Source of the DNA: an uncultured Alphaproteobacteria bacterium
GTDB lineage: Bacteria; Pseudomonadota; Alphaproteobacteria; Geminicoccales; Geminicoccaceae
Length of the DNA: 64,000 nt
Reading direction: 5' to 3'
Assembly: GCA_963753315.1 (NCBI GenBank)
Contig: CAVWCI010000015.1
Location: 5,518 to 69,517, forward strand
The translations under genes were made by a program, and so were the position numbers. The notes beneath the pieces were generated by a model, which was given only the letters and a program-made list of their open reading frames with translations, did not search any database and was not told the origin of the DNA. Shown one piece after another: positions 54,633 to 63,949 of this stretch. Each line of letters starts with the position of its first letter. The stretch's first letter is position 1.

Positions 54633-54884
54633 CGCTCCCCCTCGCTTCGCCGGAGCGTCGTCGCAAGCACCGGGCCTGTCAAGGAAGAGGGGGCAGTGGT
54701 CTAAGGCGTGGAGAGTTCGACGAACGCCACGTTCTGGCGCAAGCCCACCATTTGGACCGGACAGAAGCCATGGCAGCCTTGGTCATGGGCGGGTATTCCT
54801 CACGTCGGTTGTGAACGTCCATCGACGGCACGGAGGCGCGATTTATTCCTGACATGCCTGTTGGACGCGGCTAGAGTGGCAATC

Positions 54885-55778
54885 ATGGACTTTCGCTCAC
54901 TCCTGGCTCGGCACCGCTCAGATCTTGCTCTGGTCATTGGCAATGGTATCAACAGATATGGCTCGGCGCCCAACACGAACTCATGGCACGATCTGTTGGT
55001 AACGCTCGCTAGCAAGTTTATTGGAAAACAAAGTGAAAAAATCCCGGCCGGCATCGCACTCACTGAGTTTTACGATATTCTAGAATTGAAGTCTGGACCG
55101 AGCGTACCTGGGAAATCGCTGCAAAAAGAATTCAGCAATCTGATGCGAGAATGGACGCCGCACGAGCATCATAGGCGGATTGTCTACTGGGCAGCTCAAG
55201 CCCGATGCCCGTTGCTAACCACAAATTTTGAGAATGTCCTCGGCGAAGCCGGTGCGTGCACGTTGCTCCATACCCAACGAGATGGATTTACGGATTACTA
55301 TCCCTGGGAAACCTACTACGGACATGGACCGCTTACTGATCCTAGCGTCGGGTTTGGAATATGGCATATCAATGGGATGGAACGCTATCGACGCAGCATC
55401 CGACTCGGATTAACCCACTATATGGGATCTGTCGAGAGAGCAAGAAGTTGGATTCACAAAGGCAAGGAGAGAAGGCTCTTTTCTGGAAACAGCGCACGCG
55501 AGTGGCGAGGCGCGGGCACTTGGCTACACATAGTTTTTAATAAACCCCTTTTGATCTTTGGCCTCGGTCTTGAAGAAAATGAAATTTTCCTTAGATGGCT
55601 TCTTATAGAGAGAGCAAGATATTTCCGAAAGGTTCCCGAAAGAAAGAAGCAAGCGTGGTATATGCATATTGACGAGATGGCTGGCTCAGGAAAGCTCTTT
55701 TTCCTGGAAGGCGTGGGCGTCAAGCCTATCAGGGCCAGGAGCTACGACGAGCTGTACGGTGTGGCGACCTGGACTTGA
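54885..55778 (+). CDS. standalone SIR2-like (SIR2_2-type) protein, candidate NAD-consuming defence effector
   Basis: Low-GC ORF 54708..55778; the likely ATG is at 54885 (297 aa). Motifs occur in SIR2 order: LALVIGNGIN (Rossmann glycine loop), PLLTTNFENVL (Asn 55224-55226), GIWHINGM (His 55365-55367), PLLIFGLGLEENEIFLRWLL. Confidence 0.7.
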   Translation: MDFRSLLARHRSDLALVIGNGINRYGSAPNTNSWHDLLVTLASKFIGKQSEKIPAGIALTEFYDILELKSGPSVPGKSLQKEFSNLMREWTPHEHHRRIVYWAAQARCPLLTTNFENVLGEAGACTLLHTQRDGFTDYYPWETYYGHGPLTDPSVGFGIWHINGMERYRRSIRLGLTHYMGSVERARSWIHKGKERRLFSGNSAREWRGAGTWLHIVFNKPLLIFGLGLEENEIFLRWLLIERARYFRKVPERKKQAWYMHIDEMAGSGKLFFLEGVGVKPIRARSYDELYGVATWT

Positions 55779-56321
55779 TGGGCCCGCCCAAAAGCACCCC
55801 TGATCGGGACAGGGAGTGCGTCCTCCTCGACGGCGGAGAGCGAGAAGGGTGGCGAACCGCGCCTGAGCCGATCGATCGAGCCCCTCGACTGGAACGCCGG
55901 CGCCCTTTGATCTCGAAGGCACCCTCGACCCCGGCAGCGACCTGCGAAGAGCAGTTCTTGCCCGATCGAAGACCCTTCTCCTGCCGCGACGGCGCCCTGG
56001 CGCATGGTGGTGCAAAAATGCGACGGGTGACGCAAGAATGCGACGGGGTGGCGCATATCACATGCCGCAGCGCACGGTGCGCGTCGCATGCCTTCCCTTC
56101 GCCCGCGCGGTGCGGGACGATCATTCCTGGAGCTCTGATTCGGTTAAACTTGGCACTGCCTGTTGCAGCGCCTCCCCATTGGCGAGGCCTCGTCCGCACC
56201 AGCCTCCCCTTGAACCAACCCGGAAGCCGCCATGCGTCGTCCCGGAGCCGCGTCTGGCGCGGCGTCTTCGAGCATTCCCCGCGCCGCAGGTCGCCACCGC
56301 CGGCGCGCGCGAAAAAAACCA

Positions 56322-56353
56322 ATCGAACCTGAAGCCCGCGGAAATCCTGGCGA
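56322..56353 (+). repeat. copy 1 of an imperfect 32-nt direct repeat in a non-coding stretch
   Basis: ATCGAACCTGAAGCCCGCGGAAATCCTGGCGA matches copy 2 at 28 of 32 positions. Confidence 0.6.
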
Positions 56354-56480
56354 AGTCGCGCCCGCTACGGCCGCGGACGAACCCGGGACCGTCCTTGAGC
56401 TGCGACCTGGAGCCGCCACACGGTATCCGGCGGCCTAGCGACCTGAGTCGCGCCAGAAGCCGGCGCACGGCAGGAATCCG

Positions 56481-56512
56481 ATCGAACCCGAAGCCCGCAG
56501 AAACCCTTGCGA
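56481..56512 (+). repeat. copy 2 of the imperfect 32-nt direct repeat
   Basis: ATCGAACCCGAAGCCCGCAGAAACCCTTGCGA lies 159 nt downstream of copy 1. Confidence 0.6.
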
Positions 56513-56671
56513 GATCAGCTCCGTGACGGCCGCTGGGCCTGCAAACGCTGCAGCGCACCGCCGGGCCGACCAAGCTTGGCGACCGGGCGCCGCTGCAGGA
56601 AGCCGAACGCCACGGGTCCAGGGCACGGGCGGCCCTGGCGCCGCAGCGTCAGGTGGTGTGAGGCCTGGGGA

Positions 56672-58086: not shown

Positions 58087-60063
58087 ATGGAGCCCATGCT
58101 CGCGCAATCGGCCATGCTCGGTGGTGCGGTGCCGGACCGATCGCCGCTCGGCTGGCTGATCCTGCTGCCGCTCGGCTGCCTGGTGCTCGGGCAGCTGCTG
58201 CTGGTGACCACGGGCATCATCCCGGTGCTCGACGGCATCCTGGTCGATCCCGACGGCTACATGCGCCTGAACCGGGTCCTGGCGCTGCACGACGGCGGCT
58301 CCTGGTTCAACTCGCGCTACTGGCGGATCAATCCGCCCGAAGGTCACGCGCAGCACTGGACCCGGCCGCTCGACGCGCTGCTGCTGGCAGGCGGCCTGCT
58401 GCTCGAGCCCATCTTCGGCTTCCGGCAGGGCCTGCATGTCTGGGGCGTGCTGTTCAGCCCGGTCTGCCTCGCGCTCGGCGTGCTGGCGCTGGCCTGGGCG
58501 ATCGAGCCCGTGCTGGATCGCGACGCCCGCATGTTCGCGTGCCTGGCCTTTCTGATGCAGCCGACCGTGCTGGCCTATTCGAGCGTCGGCCGGCCGGACC
58601 ATCACAGTCTTCTGCTGTTGCTGTTCGTGATCCTGCTCGGGCTGACCTTCCGGCTGCTGACCGATCCTTTGGACCGGCGCTCGGCCAGGCTCGCGGGGGC
58701 GATCGCGGCGCTGAGCCTCTGGATCAGCCTCGAATCGCTGACCTTCGTGGGCTGCAGCCTGGCGATCCTCGGCCTCTACTGGCTGCTGGGCGACGGCGGT
58801 CTCGGCCGCCAGAACCGCGACTACATGGCGACGCTGACGATCGCGCTCGCCATGGCGCTCCTGATCGAGCGGGGACCGCTGCAGCTTTTCGCGATCGAGA
58901 ACGACCGTCTGTCGATCCTGCACGTCACGCTGTTCGCGCTGATCACCCTGTTCTGGCTGCTGGCCGCCCGCGTCGGGCCTGCGGAGACCATCTGGGCCGA
59001 GCGCGTGGCGCGCCTTGCGGTGCATCACCCTCGGCCCTTTGCCCGCTACGACCCGCCAAAGCCGCCGGCGGCGGGCATCGCCGGCCGCATCGTGCTCGCA
59101 GGCGCCGGGCTTGCCAGCGTCGGCCTAGCCATGCTGATCCTGTTTCCCGAGCTGGCACGCGGCCCGCTCGGCGAGGTCGACCCGCTCTACGACGAGATCC
59201 GCCTGCAGCGGATCGTCGAGATCCAGCCGCTGGTGTCGCTCGAGCGGCTCGCCGCCGGGCGGCTGGGCGAGATCGCCAACCGGGTCATCCAGGTGGTCGG
59301 GATCGCCTTCGCGGCGGTCCCCTTCCTGGTCGTTCTGCTTCGTCGCCCTGGGCTGCCGGGCCATCGCGTCTGGGTCGGCTTCGCGCTGGCGCTGGCGATG
59401 TTCCTGCCGCTCGCCGCCTACCAGTTGCGCTGGTCGAGCTATGCCCAGGTCCTGCTGGTGCCGCCCTACAGCGCGCTCGTCGCCTGGCTGCTGCTGCGGG
59501 TCGGCGAGCATCTGCCGCCGAGCCGGCTGCAGCTGGTGAGGCCCCTGATCATCGTTGCGGCCCTGTTCTGGCCGATCGGGCTCGCGCAACTCATGCCGCA
59601 GCAGGAGACCGTCACCGCCACCGACGCGTGCCGGATCGACCGCGCGAGCCCCGCGCTCAACCGGCTGGGGCGGGAGGGGACGATCCTGGCGCTCGCCGAC
59701 TATGGGCCGGAGCTGCTCTACCGCACGCAGCATGGGGTCCTCTCGATTCCCAACCATCGGCCCCAGCCGGGCTTCAACGCCGGCTATCGAGCGTTGACCG
59801 CGACCGATCTGCGGGCGGCGAGGGCCGAGCTCGCCCGTCATGGCGTCGACTGGATCCTGCTCTGCCCGAGCATCGTCGAGCGCGGCCACTTCACCGAGGG
59901 GCGGGAGGGCGAGGCGACGCTGTATCGCAGGCTGCTCGACGGCACGGCGCCGTCCTGGCTGCGCGCGGTCGGGCTCGGCGAGGAGCTGCGCGGATCGATG
60001 CAGCTGTTCGAGATCGACCCCGGCGCCGGGCCTGGCACCGACCTGAGCACGAAACGGCCCTGA
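58087..60063 (+). CDS. polytopic membrane protein, possible divergent GT-C / STT3-PglB-AglB-like glycosyltransferase
   Basis: Intact 658-aa ORF with many TM helices. It has an acidic first-loop motif VDPDGYMRLNR (58243-58275) and LADYGPELLYRTQHGVLSIPNH (from 59692) where oligosaccharyltransferases carry WWDYG. Family assignment is tentative. Confidence 0.5.
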   Translation: MEPMLAQSAMLGGAVPDRSPLGWLILLPLGCLVLGQLLLVTTGIIPVLDGILVDPDGYMRLNRVLALHDGGSWFNSRYWRINPPEGHAQHWTRPLDALLLAGGLLLEPIFGFRQGLHVWGVLFSPVCLALGVLALAWAIEPVLDRDARMFACLAFLMQPTVLAYSSVGRPDHHSLLLLLFVILLGLTFRLLTDPLDRRSARLAGAIAALSLWISLESLTFVGCSLAILGLYWLLGDGGLGRQNRDYMATLTIALAMALLIERGPLQLFAIENDRLSILHVTLFALITLFWLLAARVGPAETIWAERVARLAVHHPRPFARYDPPKPPAAGIAGRIVLAGAGLASVGLAMLILFPELARGPLGEVDPLYDEIRLQRIVEIQPLVSLERLAAGRLGEIANRVIQVVGIAFAAVPFLVVLLRRPGLPGHRVWVGFALALAMFLPLAAYQLRWSSYAQVLLVPPYSALVAWLLLRVGEHLPPSRLQLVRPLIIVAALFWPIGLAQLMPQQETVTATDACRIDRASPALNRLGREGTILALADYGPELLYRTQHGVLSIPNHRPQPGFNAGYRALTATDLRAARAELARHGVDWILLCPSIVERGHFTEGREGEATLYRRLLDGTAPSWLRAVGLGEELRGSMQLFEIDPGAGPGTDLSTKRP

Positions 60064-60066
60064 TCC

Positions 60067-61062
60067 ATGTCGCAGAAAACCCTGATCATCCAGATCCCCT
60101 GCTTCAACGAGGCCGAGACCCTGGGCGTGACCCTGTCCGCCCTGCCGCGCTCGGTCGAGGGTTTTTCGCGCGTCGAATGGATGGTGATCGACGACGGCTG
60201 CAGCGACGACACGGTGGCGGTCGCCCTGGCGCACGGCGTCGATCACATCGTGCGGCTGGACCACAACCAGGGGCTGGCGCGGGCGTTTGCCGCCGGACTG
60301 GAGGCGGCGGTGCGCGCCGGCGCCGACGTCATCGTCAATACCGACGCCGACAACCAATACTGCGCCGGGGACATCCCCAAGCTCACGCGGCCGATCCTGG
60401 CGGGCGAGGCCGATCTGGTGATCGGCGCCCGGCCGATCATGGCGACGCCGCACTTCTCGCAGACCAAGAAGGCCCTGCAGATGCTCGGCAGCCTGGTGGT
60501 GCGCATGGCGTCGACCACCACCGTGGTGGATGCGCCGAGCGGCTTTCGCGCCTTCTCGCGCAAGGCGGCGCAGAGCCTGCACGTGCATGGCGAGTACAGC
60601 TATACGCTCGAGACCATCATCGCCGCCGGCACCCAGCACCTGGCGGTGACGTCGGTGCCGATCCGCACCAACCCGGATCTGCGCCCGTCACGGCTGGTCA
60701 AGAGCCTGCCGGACTACGTCCTGCGCTCGGCGGTCACGATCGTGCGCAGCTTTGCGACCTATCGGCCGCTGCGCTTCTTCGTCAGCATCGGCGCCGCGGC
60801 CCTCTTCGTCGGGCTCTGCCTGGGCGTTCGCTACCTCTACCTCGTAGCGATCGGGCAGGGCGACGGTCACATCCAGTCGGTGATCCTGAGCGCGCTTTTG
60901 ACCGGCATGGGGGTCCTGGTCGCCCTGATCGGCATCGTCGCCGACCTGATCGCGGTCAACCGGCGTCTGCTGGAGAAGGTGCTCGCCCATCAGCAGGCGA
61001 GCGCCGAGCCCGCCGCGGCCCGGCAGCCGCAAAGGCGCCGCTCGCGCGCGTCGGCGGCCTAG
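60067..61062 (+). CDS. family 2 glycosyltransferase with C-terminal TM helices (polyprenyl-phosphate glycosyltransferase type)
   Basis: 331-aa ORF: IIQIPCFNEAETLGVTL, VIDDGCSDDT, NTDADNQY, DAPSGFRAF, then two TM helices. Confidence 0.85.
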   Translation: MSQKTLIIQIPCFNEAETLGVTLSALPRSVEGFSRVEWMVIDDGCSDDTVAVALAHGVDHIVRLDHNQGLARAFAAGLEAAVRAGADVIVNTDADNQYCAGDIPKLTRPILAGEADLVIGARPIMATPHFSQTKKALQMLGSLVVRMASTTTVVDAPSGFRAFSRKAAQSLHVHGEYSYTLETIIAAGTQHLAVTSVPIRTNPDLRPSRLVKSLPDYVLRSAVTIVRSFATYRPLRFFVSIGAAALFVGLCLGVRYLYLVAIGQGDGHIQSVILSALLTGMGVLVALIGIVADLIAVNRRLLEKVLAHQQASAEPAAARQPQRRRSRASAA

Positions 61063-61095
61063 GTAGCGCCCACCGGGCACGGATCGGAGTTCGAC

Positions 61096-61728
61096 ATGTC
61101 CGCGGTATCAGCGCAGCCGGACGAGGTGGTCGCCGGCAACGTCTATCCCAAGTACACGACGCGCAATCCGCTGGCGCGGCTGCTGGTGGCCAGTTTCCAG
61201 GCAAATCTGCGCGCCCTGGTGCAGCGCAGCGGCGCGCGCCAGGTGCACGAGGTCGGCTGCGGCGAGGGCTTCCTCGCCAGGCGGCTGGCCGCCGACGGCT
61301 ACCGGGTGCGCGGCAGCGATCTGTCGCCGGCGACGATTGCGGAGGCGCGCCGGCGCAGCGCCGGCATGACGCCGCCGATCGCCTTTCAGGTCGCCGACCT
61401 GTATCGGCTAGAGCCGGACCGCGACGCGGCCGAGCTGATCGTCTGCTGCGAGGTTCTGGAGCATCTGCCCGATACGGCGCGGGCGTTGGACGTGCTCGGG
61501 CAGCTCGCCCGTCCGCACCTGATCGCAAGCGTGCCCAAGGAGCCTCTCTGGCGCATCCTGAACGTCGCCCGCGGCAGGTATTGGTCCGAGCTCGGCAACA
61601 CGCCCGGGCATCTGCAGCACTGGTCGGGGGGCGCCTTCACTGCGTTGCTCGCGGAGCGCTTCGAGGTGGTCGAGGTCCGCAACCCCTTGCCCTGGACCAT
61701 GGTGCTCTGCCGAGTCCGAGGGCGGTGA
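61096..61728 (+). CDS. class I SAM-dependent methyltransferase
   Basis: 210-aa ORF with motif I VHEVGCGEGFLARRL and motif II/III LIVCCEVLEHLPD. Confidence 0.85.
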   Translation: MSAVSAQPDEVVAGNVYPKYTTRNPLARLLVASFQANLRALVQRSGARQVHEVGCGEGFLARRLAADGYRVRGSDLSPATIAEARRRSAGMTPPIAFQVADLYRLEPDRDAAELIVCCEVLEHLPDTARALDVLGQLARPHLIASVPKEPLWRILNVARGRYWSELGNTPGHLQHWSGGAFTALLAERFEVVEVRNPLPWTMVLCRVRGR

Positions 61729-62683
61729 TCGTACCGCCCGATAAGGCGGTCCGCATCGGTCGTCTGATCGGCTGGGCGGCGGTCGCTGCGTCCTTGGGGT
61801 TCGTGGGGCTGCAGCTTTGGCAGCATGCGCCATGGCGGCTGGCCGGCGCGCATCTGGAAGTCCTGACGGCGGCGATCGTCGGCGGCGCGCTGCTCTACGG
61901 CTCGGCCGGCCTCCTTCTGTCGAGTGCCTGGTACCAGCTGCTGAATACCGGCAGTGGGACGGCATCGCTTCGCTGCCATCACGCCGTCTACGGCCGCACG
62001 CAGATCGCCAAATATCTGCCGGGGAACGTGTTTCACCTGGTCGGCCGCCAGGTCATCGGTCGCCGGCTCGGGCACGGCCAGGGTCGCCTGGCGCTCGCCT
62101 CGCTGCTCGAAGCCCTGCTGCTCGTGCTGGTGGCGGGCGCGCTCAGCCTGCCGCTGGTGTGGCACTGGCTCGATCAGGGGCTGTTGTGGATCGGCGCCCT
62201 GACTGCGCCGGCGCTTGTGCTGATCGCCGTGCGCTGGACCCGCAATCACCGTTCGGCGCTCTGCGACCTCGAGGAAGGCGTTGATCGAGATGCCGATGGG
62301 AGCGGCCCTGCGCCTGCTGCGTGCCGCCGCGCTGTATGCCCTCTTCTTTCTCGTCGTCGCGGCCATCTTCTGGATGCTTGCGCTGAGCGTGAGCGAACTC
62401 GGGCCGGCCCTCGATCGGCTTTGCCGGCAGCATCCCGGTGGTCGCGCTCGCCTGGCTGGTCGGCTTCGTCACACCCGGCTCCTCGGCGGGCATCGGCGTC
62501 CGCGAAGCGGTGCTGATCGCAGCACTGGAGGGCACGCTCGGTGCTCCCGCCAGCGCCTTGATCGCGCTCGCCCTGCGGCTCGTCACCGTCGGCGGCGACG
62601 TTGTGTTCTTCACCCTCGGCGTGATCGTCGGCCTGGCAGGGGGCCGGCCGCAGCCGATCGCGCTTGGTGACGATCCTGCTTGA
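61725..62683 (+). pseudogene. UPF0104/lysyl-PG-synthase-TM-like (flippase-like) membrane protein, frame-disrupted
   Basis: The GTG overlaps the methyltransferase stop. Three frames: ...RTQIAKYLPGNVFHLVGRQVIGRRLG...; ALRLLRAAALYALFFLVVAAIFWMLAL; VALAWLVGFVTPGSSAGIGVREAVLIAAL. Shifts are near 62280 and 62430. Confidence 0.65.
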
Positions 62684-62850
62684 TGCGCGCTGATCCGAAG
62701 CCGCCAATATTGTCAGCGGCACGAATATTTATTGCTTAATCGCCGTTTACTGTACTAGGATAAACAAACGGCAATCCTATTGCTTATGTATTTCTTAAAT
62801 TAGAGAGTTCAATGTCGACCTACCGCGTCAATATCATGGGGGAACGTTCC

Positions 62851-63141
62851 ATGAGCACCATCCGCAAGTTTCTGAAGGACGAGAGCGGCGCGACCGCGAT
62901 CGAGTACGGCCTGATCGCCGCGCTGGTGTCGGTTGCGATCATCGCGACGCTCTCGCTGCTCGGCAACACCTTGAACCAGACGTTCGTGACGGTCGAGAAC
63001 GGCCTCGCGGGCGCCGCTAGCCCCCTGAGCCGCATCGGTTCGCAGGTATCGGCGGCCCCGGCCGCCGATACCTTGACCAAAGCACAGGTTCGCCTCTCCC
63101 GCGGCCAGTCAGGCACGGTTGCCAAGCGGAGGTATCGATGA
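62851..63141 (+). CDS. Flp/Fap-family pilin with an unusually long C-terminal tail
   Basis: MSTIRKFLKDESGATAIEYGLIAALVSVAIIATLSLLGNTL carries the Flp motif G/ATAIEYGLI. As sequenced, the ORF runs on to 97 aa. Confidence 0.75.
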   Translation: MSTIRKFLKDESGATAIEYGLIAALVSVAIIATLSLLGNTLNQTFVTVENGLAGAASPLSRIGSQVSAAPAADTLTKAQVRLSRGQSGTVAKRRYR

Positions 63142-63353
63142 GCTCAGCAGCCCGGACATCTCTCCCGCGCGCGCCATGGCAGAACGCCTTCACCCGGCTG
63201 GCGGATGAGAGCGGTGCGATCGCGGTCGAGTACGGCTTGCTCGCGGCGCTGATCGCCCTCGCGATCCTCGGAACGATCATCCAGATCGGCGACGCGCTCG
63301 TTGGCCTGCCCCTGCAGTTGCTGATCGACGCGTTCGCCGCCGTGCTGTCGTGA
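63138..63353 (+). CDS. second Flp-like pilin
   Basis: 71-aa ORF with ADESGAIAVEYGLLAALIALAILGTIIQIG. Its start overlaps the previous stop. Confidence 0.6.
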   Translation: MSSAARTSLPRAPWQNAFTRLADESGAIAVEYGLLAALIALAILGTIIQIGDALVGLPLQLLIDAFAAVLS

Positions 63354-63949
63354 GCCCGGCGCTAGCCCCGATCGTCATGGAGCACCGCGACGTGTTGACG
63401 TGGCTGCCGCTTGCAGGCCTCGTGGCGCTCCTGGCGCTGGCCGCTCTGATCGACCTTCGCGAGCGCCGCATCCCGAACTGGCTGACCGGCGGCGTCGCCG
63501 CCCTGTATCCGCTCTACGTGCTCGCGAGCCCGATGCCGATCGCCTGGCTCGGCGCCCTGGTCGTCGCTGCCGCGATATTCATGTTCGGCTTCGTGCTGTT
63601 CGCCCGGCAGCTGATCGGCGGCGGCGACGTCAAGCTGATCGCTGCGGTGAGCTTGTGGACGGGGCTCGACCACCTCGCGTTGTTCGCGTTGGTCACCAGC
63701 CTTGCCGGTGGCGGCCTGGCGCTCGGCAGCCTCTGGTACCGGCGCTGGCACGGCGTGATCGACGCCCACATGGCCGCGCTCGGTTGGAATCTCGCGCCTG
63801 CCGGCACGCGACACGCCGGAAGCGCCGCGTCCGAGGCGAGCCATAGCATCACCTCGACCTCGATCGAGCCAGCGCCCCTCACTCTTCCCTATGGCGTCGC
63901 GATCGCCGCGGGGGGGCTCGCTGTGGTCGCTCAACTGATCAAATTCTGA
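63350..63949 (+). CDS. cpaA: A24-family prepilin peptidase CpaA
   Basis: Contains ALIDLRERRIPNWL and GGGDVKLIAAVSLW, the two catalytic Asp motifs. The start is GTG 63350 or ATG 63377. Confidence 0.8.
   Translation: MSPALAPIVMEHRDVLTWLPLAGLVALLALAALIDLRERRIPNWLTGGVAALYPLYVLASPMPIAWLGALVVAAAIFMFGFVLFARQLIGGGDVKLIAAVSLWTGLDHLALFALVTSLAGGGLALGSLWYRRWHGVIDAHMAALGWNLAPAGTRHAGSAASEASHSITSTSIEPAPLTLPYGVAIAAGGLAVVAQLIKF

Follow-up and report, generated by a model that had tools for sequence, protein, structure and literature searches.

Membrane glycosylation-like genes that stand directly in front of pilin genes raise the question of what they make and what they modify. We addressed this question for a locus from a soil alphaproteobacterium of the family Geminicoccaceae, contained in a window of 64,000 nucleotides (nt) from contig CAVWCI010000015.1 of GenBank assembly GCA_963753315.1 ("the window" refers to this whole stretch). 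Four genes (genes 1-4, 58087..62683) lie here on the + strand, spaced by 3, 33 and -4 nt in the list of open reading frames (ORFs), directly upstream of flp-flp-cpaA, the pilin and prepilin peptidase genes of a Tad/Flp pilus locus. Tad/Flp pili serve in adhesion and biofilm formation in many bacteria. An initial annotation, made from the sequence, had described four tightly spaced, co-directional genes with these same gaps, which agrees with the ORF coordinates. It had also proposed that the genes together could make, flip and transfer a lipid-linked, possibly methylated, sugar to a periplasmic acceptor, and the fold and sequence matches of genes 1, 2 and 4 reported below support such a role.

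Taken together, our analyses indicate that genes 1-4 very probably form a lipid-carrier-dependent periplasmic glycosylation module with an STT3-fold transferase. For the acceptor, we regard the Tad pilus or a pilin as an even call, the basis being the conserved gene neighbourhood. The explanation as a whole, namely a three-component-type module whose divergent STT3/AglB-fold transferase serves the adjacent Tad/Flp pilus, is the one that we favour by a little.

Gene 1 has a predicted STT3-like fold

Gene 1 (58087..60063, +; alternative start at 58096) encodes a membrane protein of 658 amino acids (aa) and belongs to an unnamed family. Searches with the sequence itself found no relatives of known function: there were zero matches in Pfam and only noise in NCBIfam (best E = 0.037), phmmer against the Protein Data Bank (PDB) came back empty, and the Pfam STT3 model PF02516 matched neither gene 1 nor anything else in the whole genome. 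Single relatives of gene 1 gave sub-threshold matches to STT3 (E = 0.3), to an AglB_core-like model (0.013) and, in some cases, to PMT_2. An AlphaFold (AF2) model of gene 1 built from 30 homologues (pTM 0.84, mean pLDDT 81) has 13 long helices, read as transmembrane (TM), followed by a C-terminal alpha/beta domain of ~150 aa (residues 502-658) that is predicted to be periplasmic. In a Foldseek search of the PDB with this model, ranks 1-18 and 22 were taken by yeast and human STT3, AglB of Archaeoglobus fulgidus and PglB of Campylobacter lari (E 1.3e-12 to 5e-8, TM-score 0.49-0.62). The C-mannosyltransferase DPY19 was matched at ~2e-8, and ArnT appeared at rank 25 (E 3.7e-4, TM-score 0.40). The nearest structures are thus STT3, AglB and PglB, well ahead of ArnT, as expected from the initial annotation of the protein as STT3/PglB-like. 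Neither of the two outcomes that it had named as telling against this idea, a fold outside the GT-C class or a place in the ArnT clade with lipid A-type neighbours, was found in the model and the loci examined.

Similarity at the sequence level was detected with profiles of the gene-1 family. Against PDB sequences, the family profile matched the C-terminal domains of A. fulgidus AglB-S1 (3vgp, 3.3e-7) and AglB-S2 (3vu0, 2.2e-5), and the E-values improved with the diversity of the alignment, from 0.18 for a narrow profile through 1.6e-5/4.9e-5 to 3.3e-7/2.2e-5; the transmembrane part never reached significance against PDB sequences with any profile. The alignments place x-x-D-Y-G-P-E-L-L-Y of gene 1 on W-W-D-Y-G-N-W-I-L-Y of AglB, and hence LADYG on WWDYG. 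This is the correspondence read by the initial annotation, which had seen a degenerate LADYG in place of WWDYG within the C-terminal motif LADYGPELLYRTQHGVLSIPNH, located at residues 536-557, 122 aa from the C-terminus.

The acidic-loop motif VDPDGYMRLNR, pointed out at the same time, is found at residues 53-63 and includes D56, the only residue invariant among 76 gene-1 family sequences with identities down to 21%. We infer that D56 is the catalytic Asp of external loop 1. D171, H172, H173, E378, H90, W91 and D96 are each conserved in at least 90% of the same sequences. In a weak full-length HMMER alignment to human STT3A (E = 1.4), G-R-P-D171-H-H173 falls on G-S-Y-D-N-E and I-V-E378-I-Q-P on S-V-S-E-H-Q-P, positions that we take to be the loop-2 D-x-E motif and the loop-5 SVSE motif; the residue equivalences between gene 1 and STT3 are based on this alignment and on the motifs known for the STT3 family. 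Because D56 is invariant and D171, H172, H173 and E378 are conserved, the catalytic core of an oligosaccharyltransferase-type GT-C enzyme appears to be kept in gene 1.

In oligosaccharyltransferases, the Trp-Trp-Asp of WWDYG binds the +2 Ser/Thr of the sequon, and a DK/MI motif completes the Ser/Thr pocket. None of 125 gene-1 relatives has Trp-Trp at positions 536-537, and D538 is kept in 67 of them. The family shows (F/L)(I/V/A)-D/N-x-G-P-E at the WWDYG position, where the conserved stretch is G-P-E-x-L-Y-R-T. No conserved DxxK or MxxI that could represent DK/MI stands out in the family alignments, in which C593-P-x-x-x-E598 is conserved in the C-terminal domain. Since the Trp pair is absent and the Asp is present in just 67 of 125, we place gene 1 outside the N-X-S/T oligosaccharyltransferases, as a distant relative that has the STT3 fold and catalytic core in common with them. 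"PglB-like" is therefore to be taken as a statement on fold and catalytic core, and not as a claim of N-X-S/T oligosaccharyltransferase activity.

The partner genes suggest a single lipid-linked sugar

Gene 2 (60067..61062, +; 331 aa) matches Pfam Glycos_transf_2 (4e-18) and carries a DxD motif (DAD, in TDADNQ) and, near the C-terminus, two hydrophobic helices discernible in its sequence (residues ~234-262 and ~270-297), as had been annotated for a family 2 glycosyltransferase (GT2). Its NCBIfam matches, which include a haloarchaeal Dol-P hexose transferase, were to AglJ (TIGR04182, 3e-29), PpgS (4e-18) and ArnC (7e-10), all under the equivalog cut-offs; in the PDB it matched Dol-P-Man synthase (5mlz, 5.6e-8) and ArnC (4.6e-7). 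Judged by these similarities, gene 2 is a polyprenyl-phosphate GT2 of the DPMS/ArnC/AglJ type, a class that loads one sugar on polyprenyl monophosphate. A GT2 gene is also the commonest direct neighbour of gene-1 family members, abutting them in most loci.

Gene 3 (61096..61728, +; 210 aa) is a class I S-adenosylmethionine (SAM)-dependent methyltransferase by its Pfam matches (Methyltransf_25/11/12/23, 3e-15 to 6e-12), in line with its first annotation. For comparison with other genomes, we scanned one genome per species of the Genome Taxonomy Database (GTDB), which yielded 260 gene-1 relatives, and examined the best 79 loci (individual loci are cited by L numbers). Gene 3 orthologues (phmmer E < 1e-70) stand beside gene 2 and gene 4 orthologues in L009, L011, L021 and L026, and the set of genes 2, 3 and 4 accompanies gene 1 in Geminicoccaceae, Kiloniellaceae and Inquilinaceae as well as in one metagenome-assembled genome (MAG) of Phycisphaerae and one gammaproteobacterial MAG. 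Pelagibius carries a variant in which a flippase-like gene, an ArnC-like GT2, gene 1 and an AglJ-like GT2 (TIGR04182, 1e-57) stand directly before flp.

Gene 4 (61725..62683, +; GTG start at 61725) is spread over three frames as sequenced, and its fragments in the window have no Pfam match. Intact orthologues of 313-319 aa are found in L005, L007, L001 and L002. The L001 orthologue scored E = 0.64 with Pfam LPG_synthase_TM (9.9 bits against a cut-off of 33.4), and a gene 4 profile gave noise matches only against PDB sequences. A model of the L005 orthologue (pTM 0.85) had only five significant Foldseek matches, all of them to transmembrane domains of MprF (E 1.6e-5 to 3.4e-4, TM-score 0.53-0.63), with scores below MprF at the level of noise. 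A more distant relative in Pelagibius matches the NCBIfam MprF model (1.4e-7) and bears a RefSeq name accordingly. The modelled structure thus supports an MprF flippase-domain fold for gene 4 and makes it a candidate flippase for the lipid-linked sugar. The UPF0104 label given in the initial annotation is not reached by score and is supported by this fold.

Gene 1 is recurrently linked to Tad/Flp loci

The gene order of the window, with a thiolase gene on the opposite strand followed by genes 1-4, flp, flp and cpaA, B, C and D, is retained in relatives at 53-58% identity. Among the 79 loci examined, flp or cpa genes lie within 10 kb of gene 1 in 36, and in ~22 of the ~36 loci with full flanks. 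These linkage counts are descriptive and do not amount to probabilities, because kin are non-independent and binning may put contigs into the wrong MAG. The nearest tad gene is flp in ~30 of the 36 linked loci, positioned upstream, downstream or divergently at 0.4-7 kb. Linked loci occur in three phyla, Pseudomonadota, Planctomycetota and Thermodesulfobacteriota, and in L023 gene 1 sits between flp and cpaB, inside the tad operon. The same locus, from an unclassified proteobacterial MAG, also encodes a 387-aa membrane protein with PAP2-type motifs (PSLH ... HYAIDG, by eye) between flp and the STT3-like gene (L023:4337-5500).

In a maximum-likelihood tree of 87 family members, the tad-linked members fall into at least 5 deep, well-supported clades, and at least 7 state changes are needed to account for them. 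Linkage of gene 1 to tad is thus more than the inherited synteny of one lineage. The check proposed with the initial annotation, conservation of the cluster beside flp in related genomes, has this answer: the cluster is conserved in relatives, and gene 1 at least is found beside flp in several phyla.

How often the two are adjacent was also estimated from 301 genomes drawn evenly across the class. The gene-1 family is present in 36 of the 301 genomes (31 of 254 genera) and Flp in 146. Flp was found in 28/35 family-positive genomes versus 117/265 family-negative genomes. Gene 1 lies within 4 kb of flp, usually at 70-400 bp, in 7 of the 36 positive genomes, which belong to six GTDB families; the rough chance expectation is <1% per genome, given a few flp loci per 2-6 Mb. 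For two Pelagibius genomes and for the window genome, the only flp loci present are those that adjoin gene 1, and in the latter the two Flp genes of the window, flp1 and flp2, are the sole Flp_Fap matches in the 5.95-Mb assembly.

Flp pilins as candidate acceptors

The first pilin gene, flp1 (62851..63141, +; Pfam Flp_Fap 1.2e-18), encodes the candidate acceptor. It contains an N-x-T sequence, NQT in GNTLNQTF, that is present at the same position in four close relatives and lacking in L001 and L002 (5/7). Many gene-1-adjacent pilins have C-terminal tails rich in Ala, Ser, Thr, Pro and Gly. Flp1 of Aggregatibacter actinomycetemcomitans has been described as glycosylated (PMC6182317); in the literature searched, we found no enzyme assigned to this glycosylation, nor any report that connects Tad pili with a GT-C enzyme, STT3-like or other.

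Two possible acceptor marks were considered and rejected. The Ser/Thr/Ala/Pro-rich tail was dropped because such tails are also seen in Flp pilins encoded at other places in these genomes, and classical N-x-S/T glycosylation was dropped as a general rule because the sequon is found in 9/40 adjacent pilins, with no relation to the presence of D538. In the window itself, the 3' part of flp1 (62945-63117) encodes a long tail as sequenced and differs by a dozen small indels from the gene for the 58-aa orthologue in L003, so the extended tail may be a frame artefact of the assembly and no real feature of the pilin.

In the mechanism that we propose, gene 2 would, as its homology suggests, load undecaprenyl phosphate on the cytoplasmic side of the membrane with one sugar taken from a nucleotide sugar. 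Gene 3 might methylate this lipid-linked sugar before export, a speculative step drawn from the conserved gene order, and gene 4 would, from its modelled fold and context, move the product to the periplasmic leaflet. Gene 1 would bind a divalent cation at a putative site formed by D56, D171/H173 and E378, and would hand the sugar over from its polyprenyl-phosphate carrier to an acceptor in the periplasm. The most probable acceptor would be an Flp pilin or some other part of the Tad pilus, which would receive the sugar ahead of pilus assembly or in the course of it; we consider the pilus a likely acceptor because the gene-1 family adjoins Tad/Flp genes in several phyla. The partner genes predict, by their sequence classes, a single, possibly methylated sugar and no oligosaccharide. 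The attachment chemistry is probably other than classical N-X-S/T glycosylation, since the family is without the Trp-Trp-Asp pocket for recognition of the +2 Ser/Thr, and no sequon is conserved among the adjacent pilins.

A more far-reaching version is that the gene-1 family are Flp pilin glycosyltransferases that form a bacterial offshoot of the archaeal AglB machinery, have lost the WWD pocket, use a single methylated sugar from undecaprenyl phosphate and follow a new acceptor rule. In this version, the family may have been inherited together with an archaeal-derived Tad system. We consider this quite unlikely.

Weighing the alternatives

Several observations weigh against a module that serves the pilus. 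The raw linkage counts overstate independence because kin share synteny, and some of the cross-phylum placements depend on MAG binning. No tad gene lies near gene 1 in ~40% of the fully flanked loci (14/~36) or in 29/36 positive genomes of the class sample, and with so many loci lacking a nearby tad gene the family is not exclusively pilus-linked. The sequon is scarce among adjacent pilins, as given above, and gene-1-adjacent Flp pilins are visibly no different from others in the same genomes. No glycan density is seen for the Tad pilus of Caulobacter (PMC10710030). Lastly, gene 4 is frame-broken in the window and also in L003, a locus with 96% DNA identity from another sample.

The last of these points could mean that gene 4 is a true pseudogene, in a module that is decaying here and is either non-functional or relying on another flippase. 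In the window, gene 4 is read in frame 0 as far as ~62290, while frame +1 covers 62281-62400 and frame +2 covers 62428-62683, so the gene, which the initial annotation had noted as frame-broken, has two frame changes and not one; with tblastn, intact orthologues are matched over their first 110 aa by frame 0 and over their last 63 aa by frame +2. Between the window and L003, three 1-nt indels cluster within 200 bp of gene 4 whereas none occur in ~8 kb of other shared coding sequence, which alone would suggest decay. However, the lesions are private to each assembly. Insertions of 1 nt at 62292 and 62398 occur in the window and not in L003, an extra base at window position 62198 occurs in L003 and not in the window, and wherever one assembly loses the frame the other keeps it. 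Moreover, cpaB and cpaC of the window genome (L133:1478-3800) are likewise each split over two frames yet are intact in L003, and the marker completeness of the assembly is 73.6% for 5.95 Mb, as expected of an error-prone long-read assembly. These splits and the low completeness point to frequent indel errors, and gene 4 is intact in the four orthologous loci named above. We therefore consider assembly error the probable cause of the frame breaks, and decay of gene 4 the less probable one, if a sizeable minority view.

A second alternative leaves the module as we describe it and changes its acceptor to lipopolysaccharide (LPS) or O-antigen, a capsular or holdfast-like polysaccharide, a glycolipid or another surface protein, with a position near tad that reflects co-located or co-regulated adhesion functions. 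Polysaccharides or lipid A are the usual targets of known three-component systems (PMC11127046), which favours such an acceptor, as do the many gene-1 loci without a tad gene in the flanked and class samples, the recurrence of other neighbours at tad-less loci (FAD amine-oxidase-like proteins) and the lack of a pilin-specific acceptor mark. Against it, gene 1 is usually the closest gene to flp, at 70 bp-3 kb, in several phyla and in both orientations, and once inside a tad operon, and the neighbourhoods examined contained no lipid A-type, polysaccharide export or polymerase genes. We judge a non-pilus acceptor to be possible and clearly less probable than the pilus.

It is very improbable that gene 1 is a genuine N-oligosaccharyltransferase of the PglB/AglB kind, transferring a pre-assembled glycan to the Asn of N-X-S/T, here NQT of Flp1. 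Its STT3 fold and conserved catalytic acidic residues, the D-Y-G retained in the window protein and the N-x-T shared by Flp1 of the window and four close relatives would all suit such an enzyme, and AglB N-glycosylates archaeal pilins (PMC5131992). The motifs that recognize the sequon argue otherwise, with the Trp pair in 0/125 relatives, D538 in 67/125, no Pfam STT3 score and no recognized DK/MI-type motif. So do the pilins, of which most adjacent ones lack the sequon, those of L001 and L002 among them, and the module, which has a single monophosphate-type GT2 and in which no initiating phosphoglycosyltransferase or Wzx-type flippase was seen.

An ArnT-like modification of lipid A or core that adjoins tad by chance is barely tenable. 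In its favour, gene 2 has a weak ArnC match, ArnT is among the Foldseek matches of gene 1 and some relatives show sub-threshold PMT_2 matches. Against it, the ArnT match (E 3.7e-4, TM 0.40) falls far behind the STT3 proteins (1e-12, 0.60), the sequence of the C-terminal domain resembles that of AglB, and linkage to tad is found repeatedly in different phyla. Genes for a thiolase, a GT2, a methyltransferase and a flippase-like protein surround the locus together with flp and cpa, and no ArnA/B/D-type genes lie nearby.

Relation to known glycosylation systems

The module, read as a glycosylation system for the adjacent pilus, is a variation on known kinds, namely three-component glycosylation systems, pilin-adjacent GT-C enzymes and the STT3 superfamily, and its unusual features are the STT3-type GT-C and the MprF-type flippase candidate. 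With STT3/AglB/PglB (CAZy GT66, PF02516), and especially the archaeal AglB-S of A. fulgidus, gene 1 has in common the 13-TM GT-C fold followed by a C-terminal periplasmic domain, the acidic residues in external loops 1, 2 and 5 (D56, D171-x-H173 and E378-x-Q-P, the last resembling SVSEHQP) and the C-terminal sequence similarity around the WWDYG position. Euryarchaeal AglB uses monophosphate-linked donors from AglJ-type GT2 enzymes. Unlike these transferases, gene 1 has no PF02516 score, Trp pair or recognized DK/MI, its candidate acceptor has no conserved N-X-S/T, and the window module predicts a single sugar rather than an oligosaccharide.

Three-component systems include GtrA/GtrB/Gtr*, ArnC/ArnE-F/ArnT, CsbB/GtcA/YfhO and the GT136 pentofuranose systems (PMC11127046). 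The window module follows the same logic, in that a GT2 ending in TM helices, a candidate flippase and a GT-C enzyme are encoded together. The window GT-C, in contrast, is of the STT3 type and not of the Gtr, ArnT or YfhO type, and the flippase candidate has the MprF fold, with GtrA, SMR and MATE proteins absent. The window module further adds a methyltransferase and lies at a pilus locus rather than an O-antigen or lipid A locus. From the MprF flippase domain itself (LPG_synthase_TM, UPF0104, TIGR00374 "flippase-like domain"), the only structures matched by the gene 4 orthologue model, gene 4 differs in being a stand-alone protein of ~315 aa without a synthase domain and in its proposed substrate, a polyprenyl-phosphate sugar instead of lysyl-phosphatidylglycerol.

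In Pseudomonas aeruginosa group IV strains, the gene for the GT-C enzyme TfpW adjoins pilA, and the enzyme adds arabinose to the type IVa pilin (bioRxiv 10.1101/2020.04.19.049825). The likeness to the window, compared by gene position, lies in a GT-C gene beside a pilin gene and in a polyprenyl-phosphate-linked sugar donor; the pilus differs (Tad/Flp versus type IVa), and TfpW puts D-Araf oligomers on Ser/Thr. The Agl pathway of Haloferax volcanii, with AglJ, the methyltransferase AglP and AglB, takes part in N-glycosylation of archaeal pilins and archaellins (PMC5131992, PMC3892788). It resembles the window module in combining an AglJ-like GT2, a SAM methyltransferase (for the lipid-linked sugar, the likeness to AglP being one of enzyme class) and an AglB-fold transferase, and in that the archaeal targets include type IV pilins. 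The window module, however, is bacterial, has one glycosyltransferase on the donor side where the Agl pathway has several, and has lost the sequon-binding motif.

A large family annotated as hypothetical

A profile search of 1.84 billion cluster representatives (50%-identity clusters) returned 4,403 gene-1 relatives at E <= 1e-3 and 1,147 at E <= 1e-30. With 4,403 relatives at the cluster level, the family is large. All close homologues of gene 1, several of them from Geminicoccaceae MAGs, are annotated "hypothetical protein", as are those of the cultured Pelagibius litoralis and P. marinus. Together with the family-wide replacement of WWDYG, this is in keeping with the view of the initial annotation that gene 1 represents a divergent and poorly described branch. 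The best 79 loci come from Pseudomonadota, Planctomycetota, Thermodesulfobacteriota, Gemmatimonadota, Acidobacteriota, Bacillota and Verrucomicrobiota.

If our explanation is confirmed, a large STT3-fold family that is unnamed or "hypothetical" in the databases consulted, and recurrently found beside flp, would become a concrete candidate for Flp glycosylation, and the bacterial STT3/AglB lineage would extend well past PglB. A branch with the catalytic core but without the sequon-binding motif would also interest those who study how protein glycosylation evolved or who seek new acceptor rules for glycoengineering. Cultured carriers are available in P. litoralis DSM 21314 (homologue WP_167220533.1) and P. 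marinus NBU2595; in the former, the sole flp gene is 1.4 kb away from the gene-1 homologue. The window locus contributes a compact, complete donor-side module (GT2, methyltransferase and flippase-like protein) and a residue-level tally of the STT3 features that are kept and lost, and the analysis adds an even-sample estimate of flp adjacency for the gene-1 family.

The clade of the window gene 1 includes members from MAGs of Phycisphaerae, a gammaproteobacterium and Desulfonatronovibrio (L011, L026 and L078), each with a matching GT2. Either horizontal transfer of the module or mis-binned contigs may explain these cross-phylum members. Two tandem or nearby gene-1 paralogues were found in L068, L080, L098, L110, L111, L116, L038 and L024. 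Since the paralogues sit in separate clades of the tree, they suggest old duplications, with divergent use of acceptors or donors. At loci without tad genes, the commonest neighbour of gene 1 is an FAD/NAD-binding amine-oxidase-like protein of 470-530 aa (8/74 neighbour proteins; L026, L029, L045, L062, L068, L069, L072 and L080), possibly a partner that modifies sugars or lipids in a different subfamily.

Genome setting of the locus

Downstream of the module, gene 4 and flp1 are separated by an AT-rich intergenic region (62684..62850), in which GC falls to 0.64; the module itself has a GC content of ~0.70, the same as the surrounding genome, and the drop is confined to the region upstream of flp. 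This region presumably holds the flp promoter, and a consensus scan of it found no sigma-70 match and no convincing terminator. A second Flp-type pilin gene, flp2 (63138..63353, +; Pfam Flp_Fap 6e-10), follows flp1. Next is cpaA (63350..63949, +), which encodes the prepilin peptidase and is the first gene of the tad machinery; its orthologues carry Peptidase_A24. Past the end of the window, the tad locus continues in the same genome (L133) with cpaB, C, D, E and F, tadB, tadC and a TadE-like gene. Upstream of the module, positions 54699-56654 of the window and L003:3486-6560 contain different DNA, with collinear sequence on either side. The segment is a low-GC region with a SIR2-like gene in the window and holds two other ORFs in L003, which fits a recent insertion or replacement.

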